Source of the DNA: Stegostoma tigrinum
Lineage: Eukaryota
Direction: 5' to 3'
Assembly: GCF_030684315.1 (NCBI RefSeq)
Contig: NC_081362.1
Coordinates: 64,522,586 to 64,586,585 of the forward strand
Length of the DNA stretch: 64,000 nucleotides
This document shows positions 11,724 to 51,324 of this stretch, piece by piece. The position numbers and the translations under genes were made by a program. Each line of letters starts with the position of its first letter. The first letter of the stretch is position 1. Below the pieces are notes generated by a model. That model worked only from the letters and a program-made list of their open reading frames with translations, made no database searches and had not been told where the DNA came from.

Positions 11724-12076
11724 TAGTCATAGGTCATAGAAACCCTACAGTGTGGAAACAGGCCATTCGACCCAACAGGTCCAAACCACCCCTCCGAAGA
11801 GCATCTCACCCAGACCTAACCCCCTATCCCTGCATTTCCTATGTCTAACCCACCTAAACTAAATATCCATGGGCTCTATGGGCAATCTAGCATGGCCAAT
11901 CCACCTAACCTGCATATCTTTGGACCGTGGGAGGAAACCGGAGCACCCGAAGGAAACCCACGCAGACACGGGGAGAATGTGCAAACTCCACACAGACAGT
12001 CGCCCGAGGCTGGAATTGAACCCGGGTCCCTGGTGCTGTGAAGCAGCAGTGCTAACCACTGAGCCACCGTGCTACC
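11724..12076 (-). mobile_element. tRNA-derived HE1/V-type SINE, well preserved
   Basis: A box TGGCTCAGTGG, B box GGTTCAATTCC, core ctgtgtggagtttgcacattctccccgtg...ggattggccatgcta, CR1-like tail. Confidence 0.88.
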
Positions 12077-12724: not shown

Positions 12725-12862
12725 TCCCGAAGAAAAGTCATACTGTTTTCGAAATGCTAACTCTGTTACTCTCTCCTCAGATGTTACCAGTCCTGCTGAG
12801 TTTCTCCACTACTCTGTATATCTGTTTCAGATTTCCAGCAAATGCAGTACTTTGCCTTTAAT
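12725..12862 (+). mobile_element. Decayed 3' end of another PLE-like family (related scraps at ~43580-43640, ~48160-48262(+), ~48355-48431(-))
   Basis: Shared pattern cygaaga...gtcayt...cgaaa..taactctg..tctctccacagatgctg..agacctgctga; decayed hammerhead-like core. Confidence 0.5.
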
Positions 12863-13102
12863 CATTTAGTCTTAGTTCTTTATGTACCATATCAATGGCT
12901 TTCCACTTTACACATATTTCCACATGAGAAAATCCTTAAAATGCCATGTTTTGCCTTAAAGAGAATATGCATTTGTTTGAAATCTTTATGGTCTGGAATT
13001 TGGAAAACTTTACTGACAGTCACAGTCTTTGTTTAAATCACAAAAACATTGTTCTCACATTGATTTTATTTCATTCTGAAATCTGTTATGACCCATGTGG
13101 GG

Positions 13103-13425
13103 TGGGGAGGCAATGGCCGAGTGGTATTATTGCTGGACTGTTCATCTAGAGATCCAGATAACATTCTGGGGACCCCAGGCTCAAATCCCCTCACAGCAAA
13201 TGGTAGAATCTGAATTCAATAAAAATCTGGAATTAAGAGTCCAATGATGACTATGAATCCATTGTCAATTGTTGAGGAAAAACCCATCTGGTCTGGCCTA
13301 CCTGTGGCTCCAGACACACAGCAATGTGGTTGACTCTGAACTACCCGCTAGGCAATTAGGGATGGACAATAATTGCTGTCTAGCCACTGATGTCCTCATC
13401 CCATTAACAAATAAAGGAAAAAAAA
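13103..13425 (+). mobile_element. tRNA-derived SINE sharing its 3' tail with the 32290-33130 LINE family (related copies ~48525-48850, ~52480-52820)
   Basis: tggccgagtgg A-box-like and gctcaaatcc B-box-like motifs, aaaacccatctggt core; tail ggcaattagggatggacaataattgct matches ggcaactaggaatgggcaagaaatgct at ~33058. Confidence 0.7.
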
Positions 13426-13499
13426 TGCATATTCAGATTCTGACTCAATCTATGTTAAAGCTATAATATGGTATTTTACTTTAAGCCTAAGCATGGTTA

Positions 13500-14950
13500 C
13501 TTCTGCAACAAACAGGAGCCAAAGTGAGCCATTCACCCCATCAAGCCTGCCCTGCCATTCAGCAAGATCCTGGTGATCTGCCCAGGCCTCTGCTTTACTT
13601 TAGCCTAGCTCAGCATAGCTGTCAACTTGCTACTCTTCCAAAAAATTATCTTCTTCTCTTTAAATACTTCCAAGTGATCTAACCTCTACAATCTCTTGAG
13701 TAGAAAATTCCAGACATTTGCTACCCTATAGAATGCCTACAGTGTGGAAGTAGGCTGAGTTCACATTGACCCTCCAAAGAGCATACCACCCAGATCCACC
13801 CCCTATCTCTGTAACCCTGCAAGCCAACAGGTCCTGGTGACTCACCTGCCTTTAGTCTCACAAATTTGTCAAATACTATGTCCCTTATGACAGAAACTGC
13901 AATAAGATCTTTTCTCCCATTAGCATTTGTCTTATCTGATATCTTCGCAATGTTTACAATGTCCTCCATTATGAAGACCAATGCAAAATGTTGATTTTAA
14001 TTACCTGCCATTTCCTTATTACCCAATATCAATTTCCCAGTTGCATCCTTGCCAGGTCCTATACTTATTTTAGCTGCTCTCTGCTCTCTTTCTTTATCTG
14101 TATCTTCAGAAGCTCTTGCTGTTTGCTTTTTTATTTTCTGTAAATTTACTTTCAGACCAATTTTCTCCCTCTTTATTAGCTTTTTAGTCATCTGCTGCTA
14201 GTTCCTAACAAGTTCCCAATTCTCTGGTCTGCCACTAGTTTTCACTGTTTCACATGCCTAAGAGTTTGAGTGGAGGATACTCTCCTTCACAGCCTTTGTT
14301 AACCTTGAGAGATGCACCCTTCAATTGACTTGTTTTAACCAGAATAAATTTTTCCTGAATATTCCAAAATATTTGCGAAAATTAAATGTCTTTTGCCGCT
14401 TATCCACAGCTTTTTCCTTCTGTCTATTTTCCAAGCCTGCTTTAGAGAATACTTTCTTCATAACCCTGCAACTGTCCTTATTTTAGTTGAGGACACTGGT
14501 TTCAAATCTTGGTTGCTCTTCTTCAAACTGCATTTGAAATTCCACCATTTTGTGATTGCTATCCCCCCATGAGGATCTTTTGATTATGAGATCTACCTCA
14601 TTGCACATTACTAGATCTAAAACAGTTTTTACCTGAGTGTGTAATATACTTCTGGTAGAAGCAGCTCCTCGATGCACTCTACAAACTCATCATCCATGTC
14701 AGCCTTGCCCCATTGATTGATTCAGTCAATATGTTACTTAAAATCACTTATGACAGTTGCAGTGCCCTCGTTATGCTCATCCATCATTTCCTGACTTCTG
14801 TGCTACAGTAAGATAATTCTCTGAGGCCTACAGAAAACTCCTACCGTGACATTTTTCCTTGCTATTCCTTATTTTCACCCAGACTAATTCCATGTTATGA
14901 TCTATTATACTTATACCACTATCTACCACCAGCACGGATATCTTCCCTTA
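13500..14950 (-). mobile_element. Old CR1 fragment with nested SINE scrap (~13720-13820)
   Basis: LDLVMCNE, DSNHKMVEF, KAGESPGPVG remnants in minus-strand ORFs; CR1-like 3' UTR at ~13510-13700. Confidence 0.7.
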
Positions 14951-17003
14951 TTAACCAAGCAATATACTTCCTTTTCCTTTTGGCCTATTCTTCTGGAATG
15001 TTTGAATACCTTTAAATACTGAGATCCCAGTTCTGGTCACACTGTAGTCACATTGCTGTAATAGCTTTCAATCCATATTCATTTCTTTAACTATTTGTGC
15101 CAGGCTTATATCTAGACTAATGCTGAAAAGTGGAAATAACATTTGCACCGCACAAAATACCAAGCAATGACCATCTCTAGTAAGAGAGGTTTCAACTGTT
15201 GTCCCATGACATTTGATGGCACTACTACCACTATATCCCACACAATAAACATTCTGGGGTTTATCATTCACCAGAAACTGAACTGGTCCAGCTATACAAG
15301 TGCAATGGCTACATGTTAGGAATCTTGCAGGACCATGACCAACAAAATTCTACATCAATGCCATTGTATTGGGGAGCCAATCTTTCAATTCTTTGACAGC
15401 AAGGAACTGGCATTTATATCCATGCTTGCTGCTGTAGTGTTTCTTTATATTATTGAAGTATGCTCTGTATTTGTAGGTCTTTTTTGTGGTAGCACAGGTC
15501 ACTTCTGAGAACCATATCACTTCCCTGAATGCAAGGTCATTCTGAAAGTTGAAATGATTATTTGATGGTTGCTTTTTGTCATATATTTGTTTGAAAACTT
15601 ACCCAGCTGTGGATAAACTGTGGACAGACAAATCAATGACCTTCCTCCCATTACAGAATTGGCATGTGCATCACTTCACTGTCACCAGCTCAATGTTCTG
15701 AAATTCTGACACCATTGTGGACCGCACTGTCATGAAAGAACTGCAATATTTTTAGAAGGATGTCCACCAACATCCCCAGGGCAAGTCGTGATGGACCATA
15801 AATTTACTCCTGCAAGTATTATCAACGTACTTCAACTAAATTCAAAAAAGATACAGACAGGCATATGGGACATTTTCCTTTAACAATATGATATGAATGA
15901 CGATAATGATGAAAACTAATTTTTAAAAGCATTTCAAATTTCTACTGTGACCCAAAAATGCCTATTAACATTTAGTATCCTTAGTTTCTCCTTGTTTAAT
16001 TTCCTCCGTGTTTGTAGCCAAACCACACTGCATTTTTCTGGCTTCTGTAACCAGAGATAATCTTTGTGGGTTATTTTGCTATGTGCCTGACACACTCACA
16101 ATAAGCTGGGTGTATTCTCAGCGCAACACTCAGTTGATTTTCTTAAAGTTTTCCATACACCTTTGAAGTACAAGTCTGGATGTGAGTTATCTTTCTGTTC
16201 CTTCTGTCAGGTGATGATAGTTTATATAAGACATAAATGTCTTGCTCAACCTTTGAGGCAATGTCAACTTCAAACAGCAGCTGAGTGCAGAATAGCCTGT
16301 TTCTTTTTAAATTATGCAGATTCCCAGTTGAACAATCACACACAAAGTTCATGTGAAATGTGCATAAACCCAAATGACAAGAGACAGACACTGTGAGTAA
16401 GTCTTTTTTTTGTGATCAGGACACCAGTATCAACACCAGGGATCGAAATAATTTCTTTACAAGAGCTCATCTTTAGACTTTCTATAGAGCTATTTTCGAT
16501 TATCAAGAGCTCCTTTTTCATTGCCCTCACAATTATTACATGATTCAGTCACATGCCAACAATGCCTTCTGTATTTGTGGTAACTTATTGAGGGATTTGG
16601 ACTCAAACAGATGCAAAATTAGAGGGATTCATCAATAACCGTCGTTGGTTCATTTAATATTAAAGCACAACATACAAGAAAAACACTAATTTTCCTGACA
16701 CCATGCTATTTTAATTGGCACAAGACAAAAGGCATAAGTTAATAACAAGTGATACTTTAAAAAATAACACACATGCACGCACAAAATTCCAGTACCTCTG
16801 ACAAACTTCTTGCGGACTCAAAAGTCACACCTTCATGTTGTTTCTAATACTATGTCTGCCACGAAAGCATGTATGACACTTTCTATGGTGATAACTTGTA
16901 AATCAAAATCTTAGGAAAATGGATCAATATTAAATGATACAATTGATAAATTACCCGCGATAAATTTATACATTACAATTTTCCCCCAACCAGTCATTCC
17001 TGA

Positions 17004-18270
17004 ATAATAAAATGTGAGGCTGGATGAACACAGCAGGCCAAGCAGCATCTCAGGAGCACAAAAGCTGACGTTTCGGGCCTAGACCCTTCATCAGAGAGGG
17101 GGATGGGGAGAGGGAACTGGAATAAATAGGGAGAGAGGGGGAGGCGGACCGAAGATGGAGAGTAAAGAAGATAGGTGGAGAGAGTATAGGTGGGGAGGTA
17201 GGGAGGGGATAGGTCAGTCCAGGGAAGACGGACAGGTCAAGGAGGTGGGATGAGGTTAGTAGGTAGATGGGGGTGCGGCTTGGGGTGGGAGGAAGGGATG
17301 AGTGAGAGGAAGAACCGGTTAGGGAGGCAGAGACAGGTTGGACTGGTTTTGGGATGTAGTGGGTAGGGGGGAAGAGCTGGGCTGGTTGTGTGGTGCAGTG
17401 GGGGGAGGGGACGAACTGGGCTGGTTTAGGGATGCAGTAGGGGAAGGGGAGATTTTGAAACTGGTGAAGTCCACATTGATACCATATGGCTGCAGGGTTC
17501 CCAGGCGGAATATGAGTTGCTGTTCCTGCAACCTTCGGGTGGCATCATTGTGGCAGTGCAGGAGGCCCATGATGGACATGTCATCTAGAGAATGGGAGGG
17601 GGAGTGGAAATGGTTTGCGACTGGGAGGTGCAGTTGTTTGTTGCGAACTGAGCGGAGGTGTTCTGCAAAGCGGTCCCCAAGCCTCCGCTTGGTTTCCCCA
17701 ATGTAGAGGAAGCCGCACCGGGTACAGTGGATGCAGTATACCACATTGGCAGATGTGCAGGTGAACCTCTGCTTAATGTGGAATGTCATCTTGTGGCCTG
17801 GGATAGAGGTGAGGGAGGAGGTGTGGGGGCAAGTGTAGCATTTCCTGCGGTTGCAGGGGAAGGTGCCAGGTGTGGTGGGGTTGGAGGGCAGTGTGGAGCG
17901 AACAAGGGAGTCACGGAGAGAGTGGTCTCTCCGGAAAGCAGACAGGGGTGGGGATGGAAAAATGTCTTGGGTGGTGGGGTCGGATTGTAAATGGCGGAAG
18001 TGTCGGAGGTTGATGCATTGTATCCGGAGGTTAGTAGGGTGGTGTGTGAGGACGAGGGGGATCCTCTTAGGGCGGTTGTGGCGGGGGCGGGGTGTGAGGG
18101 ATGTGTTGCGGGAAATACGGGAGACGCGGTCAAGGGCGTTCTCGATCACTGTGGGGGGAAAGTTGCGGTCCTTAAAGAACTTGGACATCTGGGATGTGCA
18201 GGAGTGGAATGTCTTATCGTGGGAGCAGATGCGGCGGAGGCGGAGGAATTGGGAATGGGGGATGGAATTT
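17004..18270 (-). mobile_element. 5'-truncated Penelope-like element (Neptune-type): RT C-terminus, Cys linker, GIY-YIG endonuclease, 3' terminal repeat with hammerhead
   Basis: Open frame SIPHSQFLRLRRICS...FPCNRRKCYTC...NVVYCIHCTRCGFLYIGETKRRLGDRFAEH...LQPYGIN (ORF 17319-18188); 8-bp TSD ttcctgaa at 16997-17004 and 18270-18277. Confidence 0.92.
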
Positions 18271-19381
18271 TCCTGAACTCTGGCAGCCTTAAGGGAGAAA
18301 CTGCACAGTTATTTGAAAAGAATTAACTACCTCAGTTTTTCTGGTTCCCAATTGGCAGGGTATTCCCTTTTTGAAATGTTTAAACTGCTCTCTCCCCTTT
18401 CCACCCCTTTGCCTCTCTTTCGGATCCATCTCTTCTTTGCAGACATGCTCTCCTTTTCATAAACTATTTCTCCCTTTGCAGTTCCTCTCCCAAATTTACA
18501 GCCTTGCTTCACCTCCATCACCCATGCTTCCGACCTCACCCAAACCACACCAGCTTCATTGCCTGGCCCATGGCCTCACAATTCCACTTCCCATTTGTAC
18601 CTTCCAACAGAATTCATCCTCCCTCCTTCCCCCAGCCTTGTCCCCTCTGACCTCATCTCCTCCAGGCCACCAACGTGTTTCAACTCTCTCCCCACATCCC
18701 GTCAGCCTTGTCCCTGCTGATCCTGTTTGCCACCCTCCCCAGGACTCTTTGCTGGTTTTGGGGTTGAGTTCACCCAAAAAAACCCCTGTGTATTTTATGT
18801 GTTGAACTCCATGTCTGATCAGTCCTGAGGCTCAAGAAAATTTGTGTACATCTGGCCAACAGATGTGTTTTACTGGATGATTCATGTTGTAAGTGGTTAC
18901 CTGTGGCTGGAAGGCCTTCCAACCCGGAGTGATAGCAGCCTCTCTGTTGGAGGCAGGAACTGCTGGTGTAAGGAAGAGAGGAAGGGCACCCCAATAGGTG
19001 TTGGGGGGAAAAACACTCTGAAAGAGTTCCTTAATTTAAAGAAAAAAAAATATAGATCAGAGTTACAGACCTCCAATTTCAAGGGGAAATCCCACCATTG
19101 GGTGGCTCATAGCTATTGCTGTCCATTGGATATAGCCATTATGCAGGTTAAAAAAGGCATTTGCAATGACACTTCCCCAAGCTGCTTCACTGAGGTGGCT
19201 GGGAATCAGCTGCTGGGCCTAACTACTGCCTGGGCATTTCCCCAGTGCCCTCAATGTACAATTTAGGAGACTTCATTGGCTAGCTAGTGCTTGTGGACAG
19301 TTCACTGTCATGCCCACTGCTCCACCCTAACCATTCTCTATTTAGAAGTGTCCAGAAGCAAACAGCATACCATTCCACAGG

Positions 19382-21562
19382 AGATAACAAGATGTAGAGA
19401 TGGATGAACACAGCAGGCCAAGCATCATCAGAGGAGCAGGAAAGCTGATGTAACAGACCTAGACCCTTCTTCAGAAATGGGGGAGGGGAAGGAGGCCCTG
19501 TAATAAATAAGGAGAGAAGGGAAGGCAGATAGAAGATGGATAAAGGAGAAGATAGGTAGAGAGGAGTCAGATTGGTCAAAGAGGCGGGGGTGGATCCAGT
19601 AGAGGTGACCGTAGGTGGGGAGGTAAGGAGGATAGGTCAGTCCAGGGAGGACGGACAGGTCAAGGGGGTGGGATGAGGTTAGTAGGTAGGAGATGGAGGT
19701 GGGGCTTGAGGTGAGAGGAGGGGATAGATGGGAGGAAGGACAGGTTAGGGAGGTGGGACAAGCTGGACTGGTTTTAAGATGTGGTTGGGGGAGGGGAGAT
19801 TTTGAAGCTTGTGAAGTCCACGTCGATACCATTGGGCTGCAGGATTCCCAAGCAGAATATGAGGTGCCGTTCCTGCAACCTTCGGGTGGCATTGTTGTGG
19901 CACTGCAGGAGGCCCAGGATGGACATGTTGCCTAAGGAGTGGGCGGGGGAGTTGAAATGATTCCTGACTGGGAGGTGCAGTTCTTTGTTGAGAACTGAGC
20001 GTAGGTGTTGTACAAAGCGGTCCCTGAGCCTCTGCTTGGTTTCCTGAAGTAAAGGAGGCACATCTGGATCAGCGGATATAGTATACAATATTAACAGATG
20101 TGCAGGTGTACATGTGCTTGGTGTGGAAGGTCTTCTTGGAGCCTGTGATGGGGGTGAGGGTGGAGGTGTAGGGACAGGTGTAACACTTCCTGCGGTTGCA
20201 GGGAAAAGTGCCAGGTGTGGTGGGGCTGGAGGAGAGTATGGAGCGGACAAGGGAGTCATGGAGAGAGTGGTCCCTCCGCAAGGCAGATAAGGGTGGGGAG
20301 GGAAAGCTGTCTTTGGTGATGGGGTCGGATGGCAGATGGTGGAAGTGTCGATCTCCTCAAAAACTTCCTATTGCCCAGTCCCCAACACCTTATCTTTATC
20401 ATGGATGTCCAGTCCCTATACACTTGCACTCCCCCTGCAGATGGTCGAAAGGCCCTCTGCTTCTTCCTGTCCCGCCAGCCTGACCAGTTCCCCTCCACCG
20501 ACACCCTCATCCACTTCACTGAACTCGTCCTCACCCTTAACATATATCCAACGCATCATCCTCTGACATTTCTGCCATCTGCAATCTGACTCCACCACCA
20601 AAGACAACTTTCCCTCCTCACCCTCATCTGCCTTGTGGAGGGACCACTCTCTCCGTGACTCCCTTGTCCACTCCACACTCCCCTCCAGTCCCACCACACC
20701 AGACACTTTTCCCTGCAACCACAGGAAGTGCTACACCTGCCCCTACACCTCCCCCCTCACCCCCATCCCAGGCCCTAAGAAGGCCTTCCACACCAAGCAG
20801 ATGGTCACTTGCAGATCTGCCAATGTGGTATATTGTATCCGCTGTGCCAGATGTGTCCTCCTCCACATTGGGGAATCCAAGCGGAGGCTTGGGGACTGCT
20901 TTGCAGAACACCTATGCTCGGTTTGCAACAAACAACTATACCTCCCAGGTGGGAACCATTTCAACTCCCCCTCCCACTCCTTAGACTACACGTGCATCCT
21001 GGGCCTCCTGCAGTGCCACACGATGCTACCCAAAGGTTACAGGAACAGCACCTCATATTTCGCTTGGGAACCGTGCAGCCCAATATGGACTTCAACAGCT
21101 TCAAAATCTCCCCTCTCCCAACCGCTTCCGAAAACCAGCTCAGTTTGTCCCCGCCTCCCTAACCTTTCCTTCCTCCCACCTATCCCCTCTTCCCACCCCA
21201 TGCCCAAACCCCATCTCCTGCCTACTAGCCTCATCTTGCCCCCTTGACCTGTCCATCCTCCCTGGACTAACATATCCCCTCCCCAACTCACCACCTACAC
21301 TCACCTTTACTGGCTCCACCCCGCCTCTTTGACCTGTCTGTGTCCTCTCCACTTATCTTCTTCTTTATTCATCTTTTGTCCACCTCTCCCTCTCTCCCTA
21401 TTTATTTCATATCCCCCTTCCCCTCCGCCATTTCTGAAGAAGGGTCTAGGCCTGAAACGTCAGCTTTCCTGCTCCTGAGATGCTGCTGGGCCTGCTGTGT
21501 TCATCCAGCTCGACACCTTGTTATGTTGGATTCTCCAGCACCTGCAGTTCCTGCTGTCTCTG
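19382..21562. mobile_element. Older inverted Neptune-type PLE: minus arm ~19382-20350, plus arm ~20350-21562 with RT remnant
   Basis: GIY-YIG remnants on both strands; RT motif IFIMDVQSLYT at ~20390-20425; degenerate TSD ataccattccacagg / atgccattctacaag (19367-19381, 21563-21577). Confidence 0.88.
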
Positions 21563-22639
21563 ATGCCATTCTACAAGGCCAATTTTACATCCTAAGACTG
21601 CCACCCCACCCCCACTTCTGTTCTCCAAACAATCACCAGCACCATCAATTGTCTCCTAGGCAAATCAAAACTTTGGGCCATGCTGCTATCCCCTACATCC
21701 TCTATTTAAGTCTTTTTGTTTGGTTTTTACCTGTTGGAACCATTCCCTGTTAAGCACCGAACGAGCTTTCACTGTGCACTGTGAGTGAAACACTTGTGCT
21801 TCTGTTTCAATGAATAATTATTTCTATTTAAATTTGATTGAAGGTACCCAGGTTCTGTTCTTCAATCATCAGATTTGAAAAAATGGTATTATGCATTATT
21901 TGCACAACTGCAAGACTTGGCACATTGTTATTGACAGTGGAAAAATTGTAAATATTTATTGCAACTGCTTTGCAGTGAAGTAGAAAAATCTGATTTTTGC
22001 GACAGCTATATTAAACACAGTGTAGTGGAAACAATTTATACAGACTGTCTTGCTCATCAATAACAATCAGGTGAGCCTTTCAAATAAGACTGATACCATT
22101 GCTAATTACTCACGGTGCCATGAAACAAGCATTGACACACTTAAATGAGCTATTGTAGTCAAAGAACAGTTAAAGTTCATGGAAAGTTAAATGAAATTTT
22201 TTCATGCAAAGCCTGCAAATTTGCAAGTAGTTATAAAAATGTTCAAATAATGTATCTTTGTGAGCAAGAGCACACATAAAGAAGCAGGTCTTCCACTCAA
22301 TGGCAAGAGAATATGTCAACAGGATGCTGTGAGGTTTAACAGCATGTTGGAACCCTCTCCTAATCTGCATTTTAATTGGAATTTAACGAGTCTAGTGTAC
22401 TACTAGGTTTCAAGTGCTTCAGCCACATCTGGGTCAGATTATTATGTGCACTGTACATTTGATGTTTTGAAGACCTCAGTATCCAAAATGTAAGTCCCCA
22501 ATGCCTGATGAGCGCTACAGATTGGGAAACAGGAATTTGTATCATTCATCTCTAAATTTGTTCAGGAAGAGGTGGAGTACTTTGATGGAGACCTGTAGGT
22601 TCTCTGTGCATCAACGGGAATGTATTGAACTTCCCGTCT

Positions 22640-23450
22640 CATCCATATCTATCTTGTATCAGGATTAGTTTTCATGTGGATGCTGATGACAGCCAGCTGC
22701 TCCGCACACCGCCTGTCTCAACACCTTCACTGTTGCTAAATTTATCAAATTGCTTATCCAAACTCCAGTGCTGTATTAAATCCCCAATTAAATGTTGATT
22801 GAAGCCTCTGTCTTGGTTTCCACTCAAAACTTCATTCCCTATCTGCTAAATTTTACCTTCTTCCTGAAATTGTCTCAGACTAAATCAGATTGTTTGCGGC
22901 CTTGACAATATTATGGACCATGACAAATGCTTTCCACTACATATTTGCCTCAACTCATCTGTTTTGGAATCATGCATTGATGCATGTGTTACTTCTTGTC
23001 TTGACTACTCCAAAGCACATCTGAGTGGTTCTCTCACATTCTACTCTCCTCATGCTTTAGGTTATCCAAAATCCTACCAGGTCCTATCTCGCACCAATTC
23101 CTGTTCCACTATGCTCAAAGACCTACATGGGCTCCTGACCAAGCAATGTTTTGATTTAAAATTCTCTTCCAGTTTGTAAATTCCTTCACAGTCTTGTTCT
23201 CTCCCATTCACTGTATCTCACAATCTCTTCCAGGCCCATAACCTGCCAAAATATCTAAATGCATTGAATTCTGATTTCTTGAGCATCCCAGATTTTAACC
23301 AGTCCACCATTGGTGCCTGTGCTTTCAGGTGCCTAGGCCCCAAACTCTCAAACTGAATCCCTACGTCTCTAAGCTTCATTAATTTCCTTTCAGACATACT
23401 TCAAGACCAACCTCTTCAAACAAGCTTTTGGTAAAATGGCATAACTATTC
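22640..23450 (+). mobile_element. Old L2-like LINE 3' portion (host of the PLE palindrome)
   Basis: ADDSQL, TSCLDYSKA, LKDLHGL remnants; 3' motif ccaccattggtg.ctgtgctttcag also seen at ~2855-2880. Confidence 0.6.
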
Positions 23451-23455
23451 GTATT

Positions 23456-24880
23456 ATAAGATAATAAAATGTGAGGCTGGATGAACACAGCAGGCCAAGC
23501 AGCATCTCAGGAGCACAAAAGCTGACGTTTCGGGCCTAGACCCTTCATCAGAGAGGGGGATGGGGGGAGGGAACTGGAATAAATAGGGAGAGAGGGGGAG
23601 GCGGACCGAAGATGGAGAGCAAAGAAGATAGGTGGAGAGGGTGTAGGTGGGGAGGTAGGGAGGGGATAGGTCAGTCCAGGGAAGACGGACAGGTCAAGGA
23701 GGTGGGATGAGGTTAGTAGGTAGCTGGGGGTGCGGCTGGGGGTGGGAGGAAGGGATGGGTGAGAGGAAGAACCGGTTAGGGAGGCAGAGACAGGTTGGAC
23801 TGGTTTTGGGATGCAGTGGGTGGGGGGGAAGAGCTGGGCTGGTTGTGTGGTGCAGTGGGGGGAGGGGATGAACTGGGCTGGTTTAGGGATGCAGTGGGGG
23901 AAGGGGAGATTTTGAAACTGGTGAAGTCCACATTGATACCATATGGCTGCAGGGTTCCCAGGCGGAATATGAGTTGCTGTTCCTGCAACCTTCGGGTGGC
24001 ATCATTGTGGCAGTGCAGGAGGCCCATGATGGACATGTCATCAAGAGAATGGGAGGGGGAGTGGAAATGGTTTGCGACTGGGAGGTGCAGTTGTTTGTTG
24101 CGAACTGAGCGGAGGTGTTCTGCAAAGCGGTCCCCAAGCCTCCGCTTGGTTTCCCCAAGCGGAGGCTTGGGGACCGCTTTGCAGAACACCTCCGCTCAGT
24201 TCGCAACAAACAACTGCACCTCCCAGTCGCAAACCATTTCCACTCCCCCTCCCATTCTCTTGATGACATGTCCATCATGGGCCTCCTGCACTGCCACAAT
24301 GATGCCACCCGAAGGTTGCAGGAACAGCAACTCATATTCCGCCTGGGAACCCTGCAGCCATATGGTATCAATGTGGACTTCACCAGTTTCAAAATCTCCC
24401 CTTCCCCCACTGCATCCCTAAACCAGCCCAGTTCATCCCCTCCCCCCACTGCACCACACAACCAGCCCAGCTCTTCCCCCCCACCCACTGCATCCCAAAA
24501 CCAGTCCAACCTGTCTCTGCCTCCCTAACCGGTTCTTCCTCTCACCCATCCCTTCCTCCCACCCCCAGCCGCACCCCCAGCTACCTACTAACCTCATCCC
24601 ACCTCCTTGACCTGTCCGTCTTCCCTGGACTGACCTATCCCCTCCCTACCTCCCCACCTACACCCTCTCCACCTATCTTCTTTGCTCTCCATCTTCGGTC
24701 CGCCTCCCCCTCTCTCCCTATTTATTCCAGTTCCCTCCCCCCATCCCCCTCTCTGATGAAGGGTCTAGGCCCGAAACGTCAGCTTTTGTGCTCCTGAGAT
24801 GCTGCTTGGCCTGCTGTGTTCATCCAGCCTCACATTTTATTATCTTGGAATCTCCAGCATCTGCAGTTCCCATTATCTCT
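23456..24880. mobile_element. Palindromic insertion of the young Neptune-type PLE (two inverted 3' halves)
   Basis: Arms 23458-24149 and 24155-24846 are reverse complements; mirrored ORFs 23776-24189(-) and 24115-24528(+); TSD taactattcgtatt at 23442-23455 and 24880-24893. Confidence 0.95.
24753..24780 (+). ncRNA. Minimal hammerhead core of the young Neptune-type PLE (same core at 9812-9839-, 17067-17094-, 23524-23551-, 39974-40001-)
   Basis: CTGATGA-a-gggt-ctag-gccc-GAAA-CGTC: conserved boxes, 4-bp stem II, ACGT palindrome; local stem I only ~2 bp. Confidence 0.75.
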
Positions 24881-24940
24881 AACTATTCGTATTGTTCAGT
24901 GTCATATTTTATTTGTAATGCATAGGTGAATCACCTTGCA

Positions 24941-25018
24941 ATAACAAGGTGTGGAGCTGGATGAACACAGAAGGCCAAGCAGCATCAGAGGAGCAGGAAG
25001 GCTGATGTTTTGGGCCTA
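24941..25018 (-). mobile_element. PLE terminal-repeat scrap
   Basis: ataacaaggtgtggagctggatgaacacag...tgggccta matches the older subfamily end. Confidence 0.75.
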
Positions 25019-25809
25019 TATGTTGCATTAAGGATGCTATACAAATATTAATTGTTTTGATCATGAAATATCATTGCTTATTTGAAACAAAAAAATGTTA
25101 ACGTTAATGCAGCAATGCTGAACATCAACTCTTTCACTAATTTTCTGTGCAAAGCACTGTCATTGTCTTACCATTAAAGTGTATCAGGATGTCATTGTGT
25201 GAAATGAGTAAAGAACAACCTAAGCTGAAGACAGTTTGTGGTAAACAAGTCAGCCTCAAGGACGGTTTCTCCAATGGTTAAGTCTGAGCGCACCGGTGTT
25301 AGGTGTTTAATTATCTTTTTAAATATATTCACTCAACAAGGGGCGCACAAAGCATACACAACAAAGGCTTCCATAGATCTGATTTGCATTTCCTAATACT
25401 CTTGGCCTCTTTATTGTTAGGTCTCCACAGGTAGGATTCCCAAGGCAAAGTGAAAAATTAAATAAATCACAGGCTTCTTTTCAGTATCATTAAACATTCC
25501 ACTGTGTTTGCGCAATTAACTGATTAAGCTTCTAAAGCTTGGATGAAAAGACACAAAGTCTTGCACTGAGATCTTAATCTGCCGAAAGAAGTGACTGAAT
25601 ACTTACAGCTTGTGTACAGTTGGATGACCCTCTGCTCAGCTGCTGCTGCCCTGAAAGGGAGATAGGAGGAGGGGAGGAAAGGGAAAAAAAAACAAAAGAG
25701 GCAATTAAAAAGGCACAAAGCTGATTTTCTTTCTAATTCCCTTAAATTGGCAAATAAATGGTCTTCAGAAAAACACTACCAACCAGGCTGCTGTACTATC
25801 TGTCTCATC

Positions 25810-26760
25810 AGTGATGTGGTTGACAGGGCTCTTAGCTGAGTCTGGCGCATCTCCCTCACTTCTGCTCTCACCCCTTCCCTTCCATTCCACAACAGTGATA
25901 GGGTCACCTGGTCTCACTTACCATTCCACGAGCATCCACATGCAAAGGATCATTAGCTGCCATTTCTGTCACATTGAACAATTTGCCATGAGCAGGAACA
26001 TATTCCCCTTCTCTCCCTTGTCTGAATTCTACAGAGACTGTTCCCTCTGGGACACCCTGGATAATTGCTCCTCCATTCCCGAAAGTCCCCACACTCCCAC
26101 AGCATCTTTCCATGCGACTGGCAGTTTGCTTCCCCCTCCTCAGTATCCAAGGCCCTAGACACACCTTCTATGTAAAGCAGCCATCTATTCACACTTCATT
26201 CAATCTACTGTATTCAGTGCTCACAATGTGGTCTTCTCTTTACTGAGGAGGTAAAATGCAGACTTGGTGAGTGGTTTATGGAACACCTATGTTCTATGTG
26301 TAAAAATGGCTCTGAGCTTGCAGTTACCTCCCCACTTAAGCACACCACAGTGTTCCCATTTTTGTTGCAGGTCTGCTGCAGTGTTCCAGCGAGCATCAGC
26401 ATAAGCTTGAGGAATAATATTTCCTTTTCCACTTGGGGACCCTGCAGCCTCTAACACTCCCAACACTGAGTTCAGAAACTTTAGAGCCTGTTTCCATCCT
26501 TCCACATTTTTTTACCCTCTTTTTTCCCTCCACTCAGTTCAGTCATGCCATAGATTACTTACAGAACAGCCAGCCCATTCTCACTCAATCTCAGCTCTTA
26601 TTGTCACTTACTCAGCTTCTTATCCATCCTGGCTTACTGTCAATAGTCCCCTCATCTGCCTATACCTTTCATAGCTCTCTCTTTTTGAACTCTGTCTCCA
26701 CGTATCCATTCATCTCTCCCCTCACACTCCTTGAACCTTCCTTCAGCATAAACAAGGCTA
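25810..26760 (+). mobile_element. Highly degenerate Neptune-type PLE fragment
   Basis: Remnants HMQRIISCHFCH, PLSEFYRDCSLWDTL and YCIQCSQCGLLFTEEVKCRLGEWFMEH align by eye with the 17319-18188 ORF. Confidence 0.7.
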
Positions 26761-27825: not shown

Positions 27826-28238
27826 AGATTTCTGGTTGCAGCAGTGGCGTGAGCGGGAGCCTGGACCAGTGGCCTGTCGGGAAGCCGGTGAGTCACTGTT
27901 TTTGAATCTATAAAAAGCTGATCTTGAGTGTCGGTGCCTTCCATTTCTGGTTGAGCAGTGGCGCGAGCGGGAGCTTGGATCAGGGGCCTGTTGGGAAGCC
28001 GGTGAGTCACTGTTTTTGAGTCTATAAAAAGCTTACCTCGATCAGCAGCACCTCGGAGCAGAGGTTTCTGGGAAGGGAGTGACCTTTTTTTCATCCCTCA
28101 GCTATATAACTGATTGCTGTGTAAACCCGAGACCCTACCCTTGTAGGGCCTCCCAGCCATCCACCTCCTCTAAACTTATACACCAGGGACAAATCAAGGT
28201 AAGCTTTTTTTAAATTTCTGTTTAGGGGATTAGCAGGG

Positions 28239-29151
28239 ATGGCAGTGCAGGTAGAGGAATGTTCCTCCTGCACGATGTATGAGGTGAGGGACGCCATTAG
28301 TGTCCCATCCAAATACGTCTGCAGGAAGTGCACCCAACTCTTGCTCCTCCAAGGCCGCATTGGGGAACTGGACCAGGAGCTGGATGAACTTCAGACCATT
28401 CAGGAGGCAGAGTCAGTGATAGACAAGAGTTTCAGGGAAGTAGTACCTCCAAAGCGTGAAGAAAGCTGGGTAACGGTTAGAAGGGGGAAGAAGCAGTCAG
28501 TGCAGGGAGCCCCTGTGGTCGTTCCCCTGAAAAACAAGTGTACTGTTTTGGATACTGTGGGCGGGGGGGGGTGGGGGTGGGGTGCAGGCCTCTGGCACAG
28601 AGTCTGTCCCTCTTGCACAGAAGGGAAGGGGGGACAGGAAGAGAGTGATAGTCACTGGGGACTCAATAGTTAGAGAAACTGATAGAAGGTTTGCCGGGAA
28701 CGAAAGAGACTCACGGTCGGTGTGTTGCCTCCCAGGTGCCAGGGTCCATGATGTCTCGGATCGTGTCTTTGGGGTCCTGAGGGGAGAGGGTGACCAGCCC
28801 CAAGTCGTGGTCCACGTAGGAACCAACAACATAGGTAGTAAGAGGGATAGGGATGTCAGGCAGGATTTCAGGGAGCCAGGGTGGAAGTTGAGAGCTAGAA
28901 TAAACAGAGTGGTTATCTCTGGTTTGTTACTCGTGCCACGTGATAGCGAGGCAAAGAACAGGAAGAGATTTCAGCTGAACACACGGCTGCAGGGATGGTG
29001 CAGGAGGGAGGGCTTTAGGTACATGGACAATTGGGGCTCATTCTGGGGAAGGTGGGTCCTCTACAAACAGGACGGTCTCCACTTGAACCAGAGGGGCACT
29101 AAGATCCTGGGAGGGAAATTCACTAGTGCTATTCGGGTGGATTTAAACTAG
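28239..29151 (+). pseudogene. CR1 ORF1 (CxxC...CxxC zinc finger, coiled coil, SGNH esterase), frameshifted at a G-run near 28560-28585
   Basis: CSSCTMY...CRKCTQLLLLQGRIGELDQEL; VTGDSIVR, CCLPGA, HVGTNNIG, DGLHLN blocks split over ORFs 28239-28673 and 28582-29151. Confidence 0.88.
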
Positions 29152-29216
29152 CTCAGAAGTGGGATGGGAAACTGAGGTGTAGTCCTAGTACACAGGAGAA
29201 TGAGCGTAGGGAGAAC

Positions 29217-32084
29217 ATGGTCAGGACCTCACTGTCGCAGGAGTGTGCTGGCAGACAGCAAGCTGGATTGAAGTGTGTCTACTTTAATGCCAGGAGTATC
29301 TGGAATAAGGTAGGTGAGCTTGCAGCTTGGATAGGTACCTGGGACTTCGATGTTGTGGCCATTTCGGAGACATGGATAGAGCAGGGTCAGGAATGGATGT
29401 TGCAGGTTCCAGAGTTTAGATCTTTCATTAAGGTCAGGGAAGGTGGGAAAAGAGGGGGAGGTGTGGCTTTGTTGGTCAAGGACAGTATAACGGTGGCTGA
29501 AAGAACCTTTGATGAGGACTAGTCTACTGAGGTGGCATGGGCTGAGGTTGCTGAGGGAGGTTTGTCGACTGAGTCAGTATGGGTGGAAGTTAGGAACAGC
29601 AAGGGAGTAGTCACCTCACTGGGGGTTTTCTACAGACCCCCAAATAGCAGTAGGGAGATCGAAGAACTCATTGGCCGGCAAATTGTTGAAAAGTGCAAAC
29701 ATAGCAGGGTTGTTGTTATGGGTGACTTCAACTTTCGCAGTGAAGACTGGAACCTCCTTCGTGCAGATGGTTTGGATGGAGCCGTTTTTGTCAGGTGTGT
29801 TCAGGAGGGTTTCCTTACTCAGTATGTGGACAGGCCGACGAGGGGAAGGGGGCATTTTGGATTTGGTGCTCGGCAATGAGCCAGGACAGGTGTCATATTT
29901 CGTGGTGGGAGAACACTTTGGCGACAGTGACCACAACAGCCTCATATTTACCATAGCCATGGAAAGGGAAAGGAGCAGTTACCAGGGGAAGATATTTCAC
30001 TGGGGTAAAGGAAACTATGATGCTATCAAACAGGAGTTGGAAAGTACAGATTGGGAGCAATTGTTCCACAGAAAGGGCACAGCAGACATGTGGAGGCTGT
30101 TTAAGGAGCAGTTGTTGCGAGTGATGTATAAATTTGTTCCTCTGAGACAGGTAAGAAGGGGTAAGATTAAGGAGCCTTGGATGACGGGTACAGAGGTGTT
30201 TCTTGTCAAAAAGAAAAAGACAGCGTACGTAAGGTGGAGGAAGCAAGGGTCTAGCACAGCTTTTGAGGATTACAGGCTTGCTCAGAAGGAGCTCAAAAGT
30301 GGAATGAGGAGGGCCAGGAGGGGGCACGAAAAAGGCTTGGCAGGAAGGATTAGGGAGAACCCGAAGGCATTTTACTCATACGTGAGGAATAAGGGAATGA
30401 TCAGGGAGAAGGTAGGGCCGATCAGGGATAGCATAGGGAACTTCTGCGTGGAGTCTGAACAGATAGGGGAAGCCCTAAATGAGTTTTTTGCTTCGGTTTT
30501 CACTAAGGAAAGGGACCTTGTTGTGAATGAGAACTTTGAGGAGCAGGAAAACAGGCATTAACAGATCAAGATTGAGGAAGTTGATGTGCTGGAAATTTTG
30601 GCAAACATTAAGATTGATAAGTCCCCAGGGCCAGACCAGATTTATCCTAGGTTGCTCCGGGAAGTGAGAAAGGAGGTTGCTAAGCCGCTGGCGAAGATCT
30701 TTGCTTCCTCACTCTCCACGGGAGTCGTACCGGAAGATTGGAGGGAGGCAAATGTTGTTCCTCTTTTCAAGAAAGGGAATAGAGAAATCCCTGGAAATTA
30801 CAGACCAGTCAGTCTTATGTCTGTGGTCAGCAAGGTTTTGGAAAGAATTCTGAGGGTTAGGATTTATGACTATTTGGAAAAGCATGGAGTGATTAAAGGG
30901 AGTCAGCATGGCTTTGTGAGGGGCAGGTCATGCCTTACAAATCTTACTGAGTTCTTTGAGGAAGTCACGAGACAGGTTGATGAGGGTCGAGCAGTGGATG
31001 TGGTGTACATGGACTTCAGCAAGGCATTTGATAAGGTTCCCCACGGCAGGCTCATTCATAAAGTCAGGAAGTATGGGATACAGGGTGATTTAGCTGTCTG
31101 GATTCAGAATTGGTTGGCTGACAGGAGGCAGAGAGTGGTTGTGGATGGTAAGTATTCTGCCTGGAGATCAGTGCTGAGTGGTGTCCCGCAGGGCTCTGTT
31201 TTGGGCCTCTGCTCTTTGTAGTTTTTATAAATGACTTCGATGAGGAGGTTGAGGGGTGGGTTAGTATGTTCGCTGATGACACAAAGGTTGGAGGTGCCGT
31301 TGATAGTATCGAGGGCTATTGCAGGCTTCACTGAGAAACTGACAGAATGCAGATTTGGGCTGAGAAATGGCAGATGGAGTTCAACCTGGATAAATGCGAA
31401 GTGATGCATTTTGGAAGGTCGAACTTAAATGCTGAATATAGGATTAAAGGCCGGATTCTCGGCAGTGTGGAGGAACAGCGGGATCTTGGTGTTCAAGTGC
31501 ATAGCTCCCTCAAAGTTGCCACCCAAGTGGATAAGGTTGTTAAGAAAGCATATGGTGTTTTGGCTTTCATTAACAGGGGGATTGAGTTTAAGAGCCGTGA
31601 GGTTATGCTGCAGCTCTACAAAACTCTGGTGAGACCACACTTGGAATATTGTGTCCAGTTCTGGTTGCCCTATTACAGGAAAGATGTGGAGGCTTTGGAG
31701 AGGGTGCAAAGGAGGTTTGCCAGGATGCTGCCTGGACTGGAGGGCTTGTCTTACGAGGAGAGGTTGACTGAGCTCGGACTTTTCTCTCTGGAGAGAAGGA
31801 GGAAGACAGGTGACCTGATCGAGGTGTACAAGGTAATGAGAGGCATTGATAGAGTCGATAGCCAGAGACTTTTCCCCAGGGCAGGATTGACTGCCACGAG
31901 GGGTCATAGTTTTAAGGAGTTAGGAGGAAGGTATACAGGAGACGTCAGAGGGAGGTTCTTCACCCAGAGAGTTGTGAGCGCATGGAATAGTTTACCAGTG
32001 GTAGTCGGGGAAACTGAGTCATTAGTGACATTTAAGCGACTGCTGGACATGTACATGGACAGCAGTGAATTGAGGGGAATGTAG
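29217..32084 (+). pseudogene. CR1 ORF2 (AP endonuclease plus reverse transcriptase) with stops and frameshifts
   Basis: YFNARSI, ISETW, FYRPP, MGDFN, SDHN; KSPGPD, NYRPVSL, QHGF, DFSKAFDKV, GVPQGSVLG, FADD; stops at 29520-29522, 30559-30561 and ~31333 plus frameshifts. Confidence 0.92.
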
Positions 32085-32380
32085 GTTAGGTTATTTTATT
32101 TTTGGATTAGGATTATTCCGTGGCAGAACATCATGGGCCGAAGGGCCTGTACTGTGCTGTACTTTTCTATGTTCTATGTTCTAACTTCCATAAAACTCAT
32201 CTGCCAGACCCTCTAGCATGAAATGCCCTGCTTGTGTCAGAGTTCGAAAATTGCCCATTGCACTTATCAGCTATCTAAGTACACACCAAACCAGAGTGGA
32301 AGTAAGTCTTCCTCAATTCCAAGGAACCAGAAGCTGGGAATACTGCGGGGAGTAATTCACCTCCTGACTCCTCAAAGCCT

Positions 32381-32602
32381 GTAAGACAAGCCCTCCAGTC
32401 CAGGCAGCATCCTGGTAAACCTCCATTGTACCCTCTCCAAAGCCTCCACATCTTTCCTGTAATAGGGCAACCAGGACTGGACACAATATTCCAAGTGTGG
32501 TCTCACCAGGGTTTTGTAGAGCTGCAGCATAACCTTGTGGCTCTTAAACTCGATCCCCCTGTTAATGAACGCCAAAACACCATATGCTTTCTTAACAACC
32601 TT
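32381..32602 (-). mobile_element. Tail-less internal CR1 fragment, inverted copy of 31533-31754
   Basis: KVVKKAYGVLAFINRG...LPGLEGLSY; 222 bp, about 10 substitutions by eye and no indels. Confidence 0.9.
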
Positions 32603-33496: not shown

Positions 33497-34572
33497 TAAC
33501 GTGGAGGTGCTGGTGTTGGACTGGGATAGACAAAGTCAGAAGTCACTTGACACCAGTTATAGTTTAACAGGTTTATTTACAGTCACAACCTTTCCATGCA
33601 TTACTCCTGCATTGGGCGAAGTGGAGAGGGGCATTCAGGTGCAGAATATATAGCGGAGAGAGAAATACTCATGCTATTTGTACTTATCTGTTGACACACG
33701 TAATGACCTGTAATCATCTTATTATCTCTCTGCCTATATATTCTGTGCCTGTGTGCCCCTCTCCAGCTCAACTGACAAAGGAGCAATGCTATGAAAGCTT
33801 GGGTTGGGCAATAACCTGGTGTCAGATGCTGGAGAATCCGAGATAACAAAGTTTTAGAGCTGGATGAACACAGCAGGCCAAGCAGCATCTCAGGAGCACA
33901 AAAGCTGACGTTTCGGGCTTAGACCCTTCATCAGAAAAGGAGGATGGGGAGAGGGCTCTGAAATAAATAGGGAGAGAGTGGGAGGCGGATCGAAGATGGA
34001 TAGAGGAGAAGATAAGTGGAGAGGAGACAGACAGGTCAAAGAGGCAGGGATGGAGCCAGTAGAGGTGAGTATAGGTGGGGAGGTGGGGAGGGATAATGGG
34101 AGCTGCAGATGCTGGGGAATCCGAGATAACAAAGTGTGGAGCTGGATGAACACAGCAGGCCAAGCAGCATCTTAGGAGCACAAAAGCTGACGTTTTGGGC
34201 CAAGACCCTTCATCAGAAAAGCTAGGGGCTGCACCCCCATTTTCTTCCTACTAACCTCATCCCGCCCCCTTGACCTGTCTGTCCTCCCCGGACTGACCTA
34301 TCTCCTCCCTACCTCCCCACCTACAGTCACCTGTACAGGCTCCATCCCTGCCTCTTTGACCTGTCTGTCTCCTCTCCACCTATCTTCTCCTCTGTTCACT
34401 TTCGATCCGCCTACTCCTCTCTCCCTGTTTACTTCAGAACCCTCTTCCCGTCCCCCATTTCTGATGAAGGGTTTAGGCCTGAAACTTCAGCTTTCCTGCT
34501 CCTAAGATGCTGCTGGGCCTGCTGTGTTCGTCCAGCTCAACACTTTGTTAACCTGGTGTCATGTGACTTCTG
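33497..34572. mobile_element. Older inverted element of a different, probably PLE family, hosting the 33825-34548 insertion
   Basis: Inverted ends tcagaagtcacttgacaccagttat / ataacctggtgtcatgtgacttctga; decayed hammerhead-like ctgacaaaggagcaatgctatgaaagctt at ~33772-33800; 13-bp TSD attaagataagta at 33484-33496 and 34573-34585. Confidence 0.7.
33825..34548. mobile_element. Compound PLE terminal-repeat insertion (two tandem minus copies, one plus copy)
   Basis: Hammerhead-like cores at 33907-33934(-), ~34188-34216(-), 34461-34488(+); 13-bp TSD taacctggtgtca at 33812-33824 and 34549-34561. Confidence 0.88.
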
Positions 34573-48800: not shown

Positions 48801-50249
48801 AATGGTGGCCGAATCAGTGACACCCGTGAATGAATACAATAAAACAAAACAAAATCGAGCCGATTGCATTTTGTTAAATTTCCCCTGGCGAAAAAGGCCA
48901 ACACAAAACTAAACCGACAGATCAGAAACCTCAGACATGATACCGTAAATTAGTTCCAATTTGTACTTTGCCTTGACTTTTTTTTCAAAGTGTTTGTCTT
49001 TATTGAAGTACATTAGGTGGGTCGTGAAGATTGAACTGCATCTGGTTCGCTGCCCAGTGGTACGTTCATGTGCCTGATGGTCTCCCAGAAGACACTGGAG
49101 GGATCCTTTAAAACAGTCAGCGCCTGAAGTTTTGATATAGTGGATGGTGACGATATTAAACGACTGTTATTGCAAATAAACCGCAAACTTATTTATTTGG
49201 GAGGGAGGATGACGGTCCGTTCCTAAATCGTTGATTTGTTCTCACGCCCGTTCAGTAAACTAAGGAGATTTCCTTGGAAAGCAGCGGTCAGGAATGTGCA
49301 TGAACTGCTGCCGTTTGGTGAAGCTGCTTCATGTTCTCTCACACTATGACCCAGGTGGCCATTTGGGAAGAAAGCTGTCCAGAAATCAGACTTACTCATA
49401 GGAGGGAAATGTCAGTTTCCCGCGAGGTGGGCTGAATTAAAAAAAAGGTTCGGGTTGAAACTGGACAGAGCGCGCTCGATGTGGCTCACTGATTTATGGT
49501 TAGACCTTTAACCAGTACAAATTACACCGGCTGTAGCACTTAAAAAGAGAATGTCCCCTGGCCTCGCAGCTTTTATCTCTCGTAATCATTAACCTCCCGT
49601 CATTCCAACTTTTGCACCTTGTCTTGGCTTGTTTTTACCCGGTAAATTAACTCCTTCATTACAACATTTTTTTTAGAAAATGCACCAATCCTGGAACTCC
49701 AAAATTCTCAGTGTCTAGACTCCCACACACCGAAGAATGCGTAATTTCCCCGTTAGTGACCTAATCTGAGGCATTTGAAGGAATGTGAAGAAGTGCAGTA
49801 ACCTATTATTACATCTTACTGTTAAGTAGGGCATCGTGGAGTAATATTTCAAGAATGCAGAAAAGTAAAAAAAAATTCATTACGTTTCTGCGTGTTCGAT
49901 ATATGTGCCTGCACTTTTGGTTTTCAAGAAATCGAGATTTTTTTGTGTCTAACCTACCCCCTATCCAATTAAAGCAGATGTTAATCCGCTCCTGACATCC
50001 GAAGCGTGTTCATTCCTGTATTTATTGACCAGAATTTACCTCTCAGAGCTGGCAGTCTGCAATGGATGGATGAGCTGAATCGACAAACCAATTCGTGGTT
50101 GACGCCCGGCTCCCTGAGTTCGCCGACGTTACTGTGTGGAAAGTGGTATTTTAGTGAAAGATGTTATTAATGCAATCAGATCCCATCCTGTGTTATTCCT
50201 GCTGCAAGCTGCGGTACAGATGAAGCAAGCCGGTCAGATACTGAATCAG

Positions 50250-50409
50250 AGACAGTAGGAACTGCAGATGCTGGAGAATCCGAGATAACAAAGTGTGGAG
50301 CTGGATGAATACAGCAGGCCAAGCAGCATCTTGGGAGCAGGAAGGCTGACGTTTCGGGCGAAGACCCTGCTTGGCCTGCTGTGTTCATCCAGCTCCATAC
50401 CTTGTTATC
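50250..50409. mobile_element. Miniature inverted PLE-end insertion in PKDCC intron 1
   Basis: Minus-strand tail plus terminal repeat, then an inverted ~45-bp copy; 16-bp TSD tcagatactgaatcag at 50234-50249 and 50410-50425. Confidence 0.9.
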
Positions 50410-51324
50410 TCAGATACTGAATCAGCACGGTCTGTACAAATAGCTGATCGTTAGCAGAAATACCTTCAGACTTATAGGATGAGGGGAGAGAGACGACACA
50501 TCTCGAGCACCATACAAGTTTCCCTCTGTATTTGGAATCGATATTGTTTTGATTAAGGCACAAATCTCATTTTTAACGGACTCTTTTTGGAAATGTGTTG
50601 TGACGTTATAACATGAAAACAATGTTAGAAGCAGAAATACAAAGAAAGAGAATGGGACTCGCTCTTTGCGATAACAATGCTCCTTAACCGTACTGTTTTC
50701 CATTTTGATCCTGCTATTGATTATACGGCTCACCAACTACTGAAGGTGATCACTGTCCCCGCACAGTTTTGGGAGGAGGGATTGTGGCTGGTTTGTGAAA
50801 CTTAACCCTCTTCCACCCTTGGTGGGGATGAGCAGGATGCTTCATGTTGAGGCCATTCGGCCCTAAAGGCGTTGCTTTTTTAATCCATCGGCGGCGTGAC
50901 GAGTGTCAAGCTTCGGTCATTTCCCCACCGTCACCGTCAGTCCCTTTCTAACGTTTGGAAAAGTTATAATGCTTTCTGCAATGCTGAACGACGGTATTCA
51001 ATTCCCGAAGAATATCTGTCTGCGACCCTGAAATACAATGCCGTACAGTAGCCCTCCCGCCCAGGCCATGTGACAGGAGCATAACAGGTCGCTTGAAAAT
51101 CCCCGCAGAATGAAGGCGTTGTACACAGTTCCACTCTCTTCCGCTGATCTAATGGCTAATCATTAACTTGTGATAACCCAGAGACCCAGACGAACTACAT
51201 TTGCTGCCCGTGACATGTATTACAAGCTTACGTGAGCTTAATTCTAATTCTGTTTTGGTGCAGGCTCATTCATTCTGATAGGAAAGGGGAAAGCGCAGGG
51301 CGCGCCTATAATGGAACGACAGGG

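Follow-up and report, generated by a model that had tools for sequence, protein, structure and literature searches.

How two long and identical retroelement arms came to be joined head to head with almost nothing between them is the question raised by positions 23442..24893 of the analyzed window, by which we mean the whole 64-kb stretch of Stegostoma tigrinum DNA. Features of this palindrome are given on the plus strand unless stated otherwise. Alignment of the left arm (23458..24149, minus strand) with the right arm (24155..24846) revealed 0 mismatches in 692 positions, and the preliminary description of mismatch-free 692-bp arms around a 5-nt spacer (TTTCC, 24150..24154) is thereby borne out over the full arm length, the right arm being the exact reverse complement of the left. 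The perfect inverted symmetry ends exactly at 23458/24846, and the second-longest perfect inverted repeat in the window (spacer of at most 50 nt) measures 16 bp. The left arm corresponds to the 3' 692 nt of the element without its tail and begins at an internal start site; its sense lies on the minus strand, with the 3' end facing outward. Both arms point outward in this way, and the join consists of two 5'-truncated ends meeting at the YIG codons.

The two outer ends of the palindrome are not equivalent. As had been claimed, the final 34 nt of the element (24847..24880), the tail between the two reverse-transcription start sites, are present on the right arm only; this tail can fold as a weak stem-loop (RNA fold z -0.48; DNA fold z -2.72), and the RNA value does not support a strong RNA stem-loop. 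The 14-mer TAACTATTCGTATT occurs exactly twice in the window, in direct orientation, at 23442..23455 and 24880..24893. It brackets the whole insertion, as described earlier, and the target-site duplication is refined in length from 14 to 13-14 bp, because base 24880 is also the last element base in sibling copies. The flanks outside the duplication differ, that is, they are not mirrored. The bases AT (23456..23457), which separate the left duplication from the left arm, match neither template nor target, the siblings having CC immediately before the first base of the arm, and we infer an untemplated addition at priming. The heptamer AGATAAT (cDNA strand) begins both start sites, 33-34 nt apart and flanking the tail (24847-24880 and 23458), and is possibly a common start signal.

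In agreement with the preliminary description of a single Penelope-like insertion, one duplication brackets both arms, a sibling contains a GIY-YIG frame and the tail is one-sided; the palindrome is best explained as one recent insertion of a Neptune-type Penelope-like element (PLE), truncated at the 5' end and arranged head to head. The most informative relative is an unrearranged 5'-truncated sibling on the minus strand (17005..18269; the 17-kb copy), which has an 8-bp duplication. It contains a 329-aa minus-strand frame with GIY-YIG and a C-X4-C-X2-C linker zinc finger, and its translation has cysteines between the GIY- and YIG-equivalent motifs as well; the Pfam GIY-YIG match (E 7.7e-4, 20.1 bits) falls under the curated cut-off of 22.6, and the frame aligns at 41-47% with the C-termini of RT-bearing proteins of 798-907 aa. 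EN+ PLEs are defined by a C-terminal GIY-YIG, with a CX2-5CxxC linker that is described as absent in Penelope and Poseidon (PMC8557442), and vertebrate PLEs are reported as Neptune or Poseidon (bioRxiv 2026.07.22.740005). Since the linker excludes Penelope and Poseidon, and vertebrate PLEs belong to Neptune or Poseidon, the family is putatively assigned as Neptune-type, by its linker rather than by an RT tree. The palindrome itself retains only the post-YIG part of the endonuclease, namely the last 123 codons and the stop (24157..24528, by translation), which start just past the YIG motif and are mirrored in the left arm; it has no RT, and this copy is non-autonomous and dead. A 63-aa RT-motif fragment in an older sibling shares 63% identity with a Chiloscyllium RT protein that itself matches the 17-kb frame, and neither a full-length element copy nor a full RT was found in the 64-kb window.

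In addition, a motif scan based on features used to recognize the minimal hammerhead motif in PLEs (PMC4209133) identified a predicted ribozyme core in each arm, at 23524..23551 (minus strand) and 24753..24780. The right-arm core consists of CUGAUGA, an unpaired A, a 4-bp helix II and GAAACGUC; it has an unpaired base after A9, a G10.1-C11.1 pair and a palindromic ACGU, with a helix I of just 2 bp. The Rfam hammerhead models gave no match in 9000-26000 at E of at most 1, where the 8 matches obtained are all sub-gathering miRNA/sRNA models responding to hairpins. An older short copy (24941-25018) lies 60 bp to the right of the palindrome, inverted relative to the end of the right arm, and the two make a second, imperfect hairpin, which accounts for the sub-threshold miRNA-like matches. 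The hammerhead-core pattern was also observed at 7012-7045 and 22505-22533, outside the studied family, and these matches may be due to chance or to other Penelope-like families.

Comparison with sibling copies bears on whether the two arms had one source. Although there are 0 differences between the arms themselves, 12 positions distinguish them from the 17-kb copy, and 8 from the 9.7-kb copy within the ~425 bp that it covers. Six variants are common to both arms and present in neither of these copies, and all three of the variants previously proposed as private to the arms (gagagcaaag, gtagctggggg and gcggctggg) are among them. Because the arms are identical and carry the same private variants, a single source for both is indicated. 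The computed probability of finding 0 mismatches between independent copies at 1.4-1.9% divergence is 2e-6 to 5e-5, a figure tempered by the existence of very close siblings, since two short copies are identical to the arms over 92/92 and 101/101 bases. Two further young siblings, at 9705-10170 and 10557-10689, lie 850 bp apart and are identical over 133 bases, including ~5 bases past the usual tail end and a 1-base tail insertion that is absent from the palindrome; the latter sibling has a 14-bp duplication, and the two are possibly local copies of one another or derived from a common source.

The same comparison gives an indication of age. The lack of arm differences sets an upper bound of 0.42% on their divergence (95%), which at the pedigree mutation rate of the epaulette shark, 7e-10 per generation (PMC10587355), corresponds to an age of up to 3 million generations. 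Absolute dating was rejected, since for the old sibling at 19-21 kb the same rate would imply 1e8 generations, which is implausible, and only relative age was used because the pedigree rate miscalibrates these repeats. On the relative scale, arm divergence is less than 3% of that of the old sibling, and the palindrome is probably young.

The one-sided tail proved to be a regular feature of the family. An anchor search for family ends gave 19 rows, 3 of which were dropped as non-family; among the 16 ends retained, the full tail is present on 8, including one at an internal tandem junction, another 7 fall no more than ~5 nt from the internal site, and the last is intermediate, a bimodal distribution in which 15/16 ends fall at one of two sites. 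We counted 11 Penelope-family insertions in the window, 4 of which are head-to-head inverted (19.4-21.6, 23.4-24.9, 33.8-34.5 and 50.2-50.4 kb). Each of these four is bracketed by one duplication, degenerate (11/13) for the oldest; apart from the palindrome, exact duplications of 8-16 bp were found at 5 of the remaining 10 insertions, and they are degenerate or unclear at the other 5. Exactly one outer end is tail-less in 4/4 inverted insertions, which by simple arithmetic would be expected about 1 time in 16 were the ends chosen independently. A diverged repeat at 12760-12830, the end of which resembles the Penelope tail region, is probably an older related family.

Arms in the other three inverted insertions are 11-15% diverged and do not end together, and their centres are larger or filled. 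The old head-to-head insertion at 19381..21564, which lies 2 kb from the palindrome, belongs to a related subfamily and is its natural aged counterpart, with a tail on the right only, arms that are 15% diverged (145 mismatches in 955 aligned bases) and a central RT-motif fragment of 195 nt. Part of its centre has been deleted, with a short stretch of direct similarity where the ends meet, and protein alignment revealed an internal deletion of roughly 630 nt in its right arm, on account of which its near-equal arm ends were rejected as a sign of coupled termination. The tandem and inverted insertion at 33823..34549 has a 13-bp duplication, a tail-less right end and ~8 nt of filler at the inversion junction, and the small inverted insertion at 50245..50410 has a tail on the left only, a ~40-nt spacer, a 2-nt junction microhomology and a 12-16-bp duplication.

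In the unrearranged 17-kb copy, positions 17689-17701 read TTGG-TTTCC-CCAA, and the left arm together with the spacer and CCAA is colinear with this copy (23461-24158 gapless against 17004-17701); the earlier proposal that the fold point is a pre-existing TTGG/CCAA microhomology is therefore upheld. In the palindrome, the TTGG half occupies 24146..24149, the spacer is continuous with the template when read in the direction of the tail-less left arm, and the CCAA half (24155..24158) could belong to either arm. Only 16/1213 possible cDNA ends offer a stem of at least 4 bp with a loop of at most 5 nt, which argues that the junction was microhomology-guided. For two cDNAs with independent ends, no more than 94/2207 (4.3%) of the microhomology pairs fall within 15 nt, so that either a coupling step is needed or the palindrome is a selected rarity. 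Two predicted 6-bp RNA hairpins lie on either side of the junction (z -2.5, for a window chosen post hoc), a possible pause site for reverse transcription. The pairing probability of the TTGG/CCAA stem is 0.43-0.67 when only the last 22 nt are free and 0.01-0.06 with 40-100 nt free, the low values arising because TTGG is held by a stronger 6-bp hairpin, which was not used at the junction. The centre is GC-rich (67% over 21 nt), and no second copy of the junction was found in the 64-kb window.

We propose that the palindrome arose by double target-primed reverse transcription. Both target strands were evidently cut, 13-14 nt apart. Judging from the anatomy of the insertion and published biochemistry, each 3' end would then have primed a cDNA on element RNA, the bottom strand at the start site at the tail end and the top strand, after two untemplated bases, at the internal site, 34 nt deeper into the RNA, and both arms evidently had one source. 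Both cDNAs would have stopped ~700 nt in, at the YIG-coding region, where TTGG of the bottom cDNA would have paired with the terminal CCAA of the top cDNA and each would have been extended on the other. We are fairly confident of the earlier part of this account, namely the two-strand cut, the two primed cDNAs and the single source. The whole chain, in which both nicks are primed, the cDNAs start 34 nt apart on the RNA and they are joined at the microhomology, is put forward tentatively, with somewhat less than even confidence.

Several observations are in favour of double priming. The duplication is a direct repeat with differing flanks. A purified anole PLE protein has been reported to nick and extend both strands, with two start sites bounding the tail, to prefer ATT and to be modelled as a dimer (PMC11167929); the top-strand primer at the palindrome ends in ATT. 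Moreover, one mechanism would cover all four inverted junctions, because the other three (a 2-nt microhomology with a 40-nt spacer, a filler and a long asymmetric centre) require the joining of two cDNAs. On the other side, the low frequency of suitably spaced microhomology pairs weighs against the full chain, as does the uneven ending of the arms in the other three inverted insertions, and start-site use in vitro is reported to be the same on both strands, with no strand bias, for a protein of the Poseidon rather than the Neptune clade (PMC11167929). The earlier claim that two cDNAs were made stands for priming at both nicks, given the anole precedent (PMC11167929) and the single tail-less end in 4/4 inverted insertions; the joining of two long cDNAs at the centre is one possible route. 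As for the 9-nt offset, one may speculate that both active sites worked on one RNA and that the tail-primed one, running behind, caught up with the cDNA ahead of it, displaced this strand and took it as its template; such a catch-up would yield arms without differences, a tail at one end only, a slight offset and a spacer in line with the tail-less arm. A general version, in which shark Neptune elements integrate as a dimer that copies a single RNA two times, with starts 34 nt apart, and strand switching by the trailing enzyme makes near-spacerless perfect palindromes frequent in shark germlines, seems unlikely to us. Were it true, shark germlines would carry many perfect palindromes of several hundred bp that are absent from human, and such palindromes would act as fragile sites or as sources of hairpin RNA.

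The joining step could also be achieved by folding of one strand. Both nicks would again be primed, and the top-strand (tail-less) cDNA would fold at TTGG-TTTCC-CCAA, copy itself and anneal near the right end, so that the bottom-strand cDNA would need just the tail and a short overlap. The preliminary description argued against simple snap-back of the top strand, which holds for pure snap-back, but snap-back combined with a short tail-bearing cDNA gives an identical sequence. The orientation of the spacer shows the top strand running through the loop, the tiny spacer is explained without coincidence, and the stem pairs appreciably if only the last 22 nt are free; a 4-bp stem with a 5-nt loop is also typical fold-back geometry, yeast fold-backs having 5-9-bp repeats and 3-12-nt spacers (PMC7999016) and small hairpins being described at L1-associated inverted duplications (bioRxiv 2024.12.14.628481). 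However, the stem is seldom formed with 40-100 nt free, the stronger 6-bp hairpin went unused, and the other three junctions are left unexplained, requiring a second mechanism; we regard this route as a possible but rather unlikely one. It is improbable that the template was already palindromic, through self-priming on antisense RNA or a palindromic master transcript, and was then integrated once. Such a template explains the identical arms, and self-priming on an antisense template has been proposed for frequent palindromic head-to-head junctions of rotifer Penelopes (PMC3846280), but the left end coincides exactly with the family's internal start site and carries two additional bases, resembling independent priming, and the window holds no second copy of the junction; a protein search with the junction-spanning frame likewise gave 0 hits among 1838 candidates, a weak negative, as such frames are rarely annotated.

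Still less probable is later remodelling: a break in an ordinary inverted insertion whose spacer was longer would have been mended through fold-back at the hairpin, or conversion would have kept the arms identical. Inverted repeats do break and repair in this manner (PMC7999016, PMC8053094), and the central deletion in the 19-21-kb insertion, with its short direct similarity, is in keeping with it; against this, the duplication copies are identical (14/14) and the youngest siblings are less than 2% distant from the arms, pointing to a short elapsed time, and the arms of old siblings have diverged by 11-15% rather than being homogenised. Two independent insertions abutting head to head are conceivable in a family this dense (11 in 64 kb) with very close siblings, but a single duplication brackets both arms, none is found at the centre, and both insertions would have to truncate within 9 nt of each other and share the 6 private variants; we consider this hardly credible. 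Palindromes are difficult to sequence and polish, and a fold-back chimera, or polishing that erased arm differences, has to be weighed as well, at about the same low probability as remodelling. Inverted PLE units are known to trouble assemblies (PMC8557442), and perfect arms this long are rare in vertebrates, to judge by the human maximum of 140 bp (PMC13155455). Nevertheless, a chimera would mirror the flanks, which are unmirrored here, the duplication is direct, the tail asymmetry fits the family and the centre is colinear with the template; polishing might alter the zero count but not the structure. Finally, a MITE or foldback DNA transposon was rejected, as the right end is 34 nt longer and the arms are truncated retroelement 3' ends whose length varies among siblings.

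With regard to its setting, the palindrome lies ~20 kb upstream of PKDCC, measured to its first coding exon (45147-45857), the frame of which is 100% identical to Stegostoma tigrinum PKDCC over its length and shares 93% identity with Chiloscyllium punctatum PKDCC. There are 77 frames of at least 100 aa, and the 35 scanned against Pfam contain LINE-type domains and a weak GIY-YIG only; no host coding exon near the palindrome was detected among the scanned frames, a method that short exons and non-coding transcripts escape. A near full-length but frameshifted CR1-like LINE (28200-32100) contains an esterase-type ORF1 and endonuclease and RT domains, and 222 bp of it are found again in inverted orientation at 32381-32602, with 95.5% identity. 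A hypothetical transcript through the palindrome would fold into 692 pairs by computation; sense transcription from the arms would run outward, and dsRNA from this locus is hypothetical.

By fair extrapolation from yeast, the palindrome is plausibly fragile and prone to breakage. Extrusion should be slower at its GC-rich centre than at AT-rich palindromes. Inverted Alu pairs in yeast are reported to break nearly as often when separated by 5-6 bp as when spacerless, and spacers below 9 bp block forks (PMC8053094); a 692-bp arm with a 5-nt spacer is within the range that blocks forks and breaks chromosomes there. In a complete-genome survey, the longest perfect human arm with a spacer of at most 8 nt was 140 bp (PMC13155455), about one-fifth of the length found here. 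Provided that the palindrome is real and fixed, one would have to account for its persistence in the germline of a vertebrate.

A single locus alone changes no model. For the joining step of Penelope-like integration, one published account argues for self-priming on antisense RNA (PMC3846280) and another demonstrates two-strand priming in vitro, short of the final join (PMC11167929), and an unmutated copy in which every junction base can be read is a good test case for integration models; young shark copies should give enough junctions to choose between them. Our search of the open-licence literature found neither a shark Penelope palindrome nor a genome-wide survey of fold points, a weak negative given that early Drosophila Penelope work was outside its scope.

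The head-to-head layout is already known and routine in the family, and what is unusual here is the youth of the copy and its near-zero spacer. Head-to-head Penelope insertions with palindromic junctions have been described as abundant in rotifer (PMC3846280), and the inverted insertions of EN+ PLEs such as Adineta Pen2/Pen2a share with the shark palindrome an inverted 5'-truncated copy at the 5' end, a 30-40-nt tail at one end, a duplication of ~9-14 bp and a palindromic or overlapping inverted junction (PMC8557442, PMC3846280). Their junction palindromes are reported as 18-38 bp long, usually with a long ORF-bearing arm (PMC8557442, PMC3846280), whereas the shark arms are ~700 nt, near-equal and perfect around a unique 5-nt centre. 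Similarly, the Anolis Poseidon element (PAc) resembles the shark family in nicking and extension of both strands, in two start sites bounding the tail and in the ATT preference (PMC11167929). The hammerhead lies 66 and 100 nt upstream of the start sites in shark and 85-92 nt upstream of the main site in PAc (PMC11167929). PAc differs in belonging to the Poseidon clade and lacking the linker zinc finger, and in the published account that we draw on, the joining of two cDNAs is not among the steps demonstrated (PMC11167929).

The proposed double priming also resembles L1 twin priming, in that both nicks prime cDNA on one RNA and microhomology is found at the inversion junction. In L1 twin priming, the two cDNAs are copied from adjacent, non-overlapping RNA segments, one of them with poly(A), and an inversion results, whereas the shark cDNAs would copy the same 692 nt and give a palindrome. 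A 5' inversion of the L1 type was rejected for this locus, since the arms overlap over their whole length and poly(A) is absent; the working is similar, but the product is not an L1 inversion. An intermediate of L1 twin priming has been described (bioRxiv 2024.12.14.628481). Fold-back inverted duplications of yeast and cancer are likewise long palindromes centred on a short inverted microhomology with a short loop (PMC7999016). The 4-bp stem and 5-nt loop are present in the shark template, but symmetric copying into the flanks is absent, and the shark palindrome is confined to the new insert, bounded by a duplication and asymmetric in its tail. Fragile quasi-palindromes, represented by inverted Alu pairs in yeast and by human PATRRs (PMC8053094), have the same long identical arms with spacers below 9 nt, and human PATRRs differ from the shark palindrome in being AT-rich, in contrast to its GC-rich centre.
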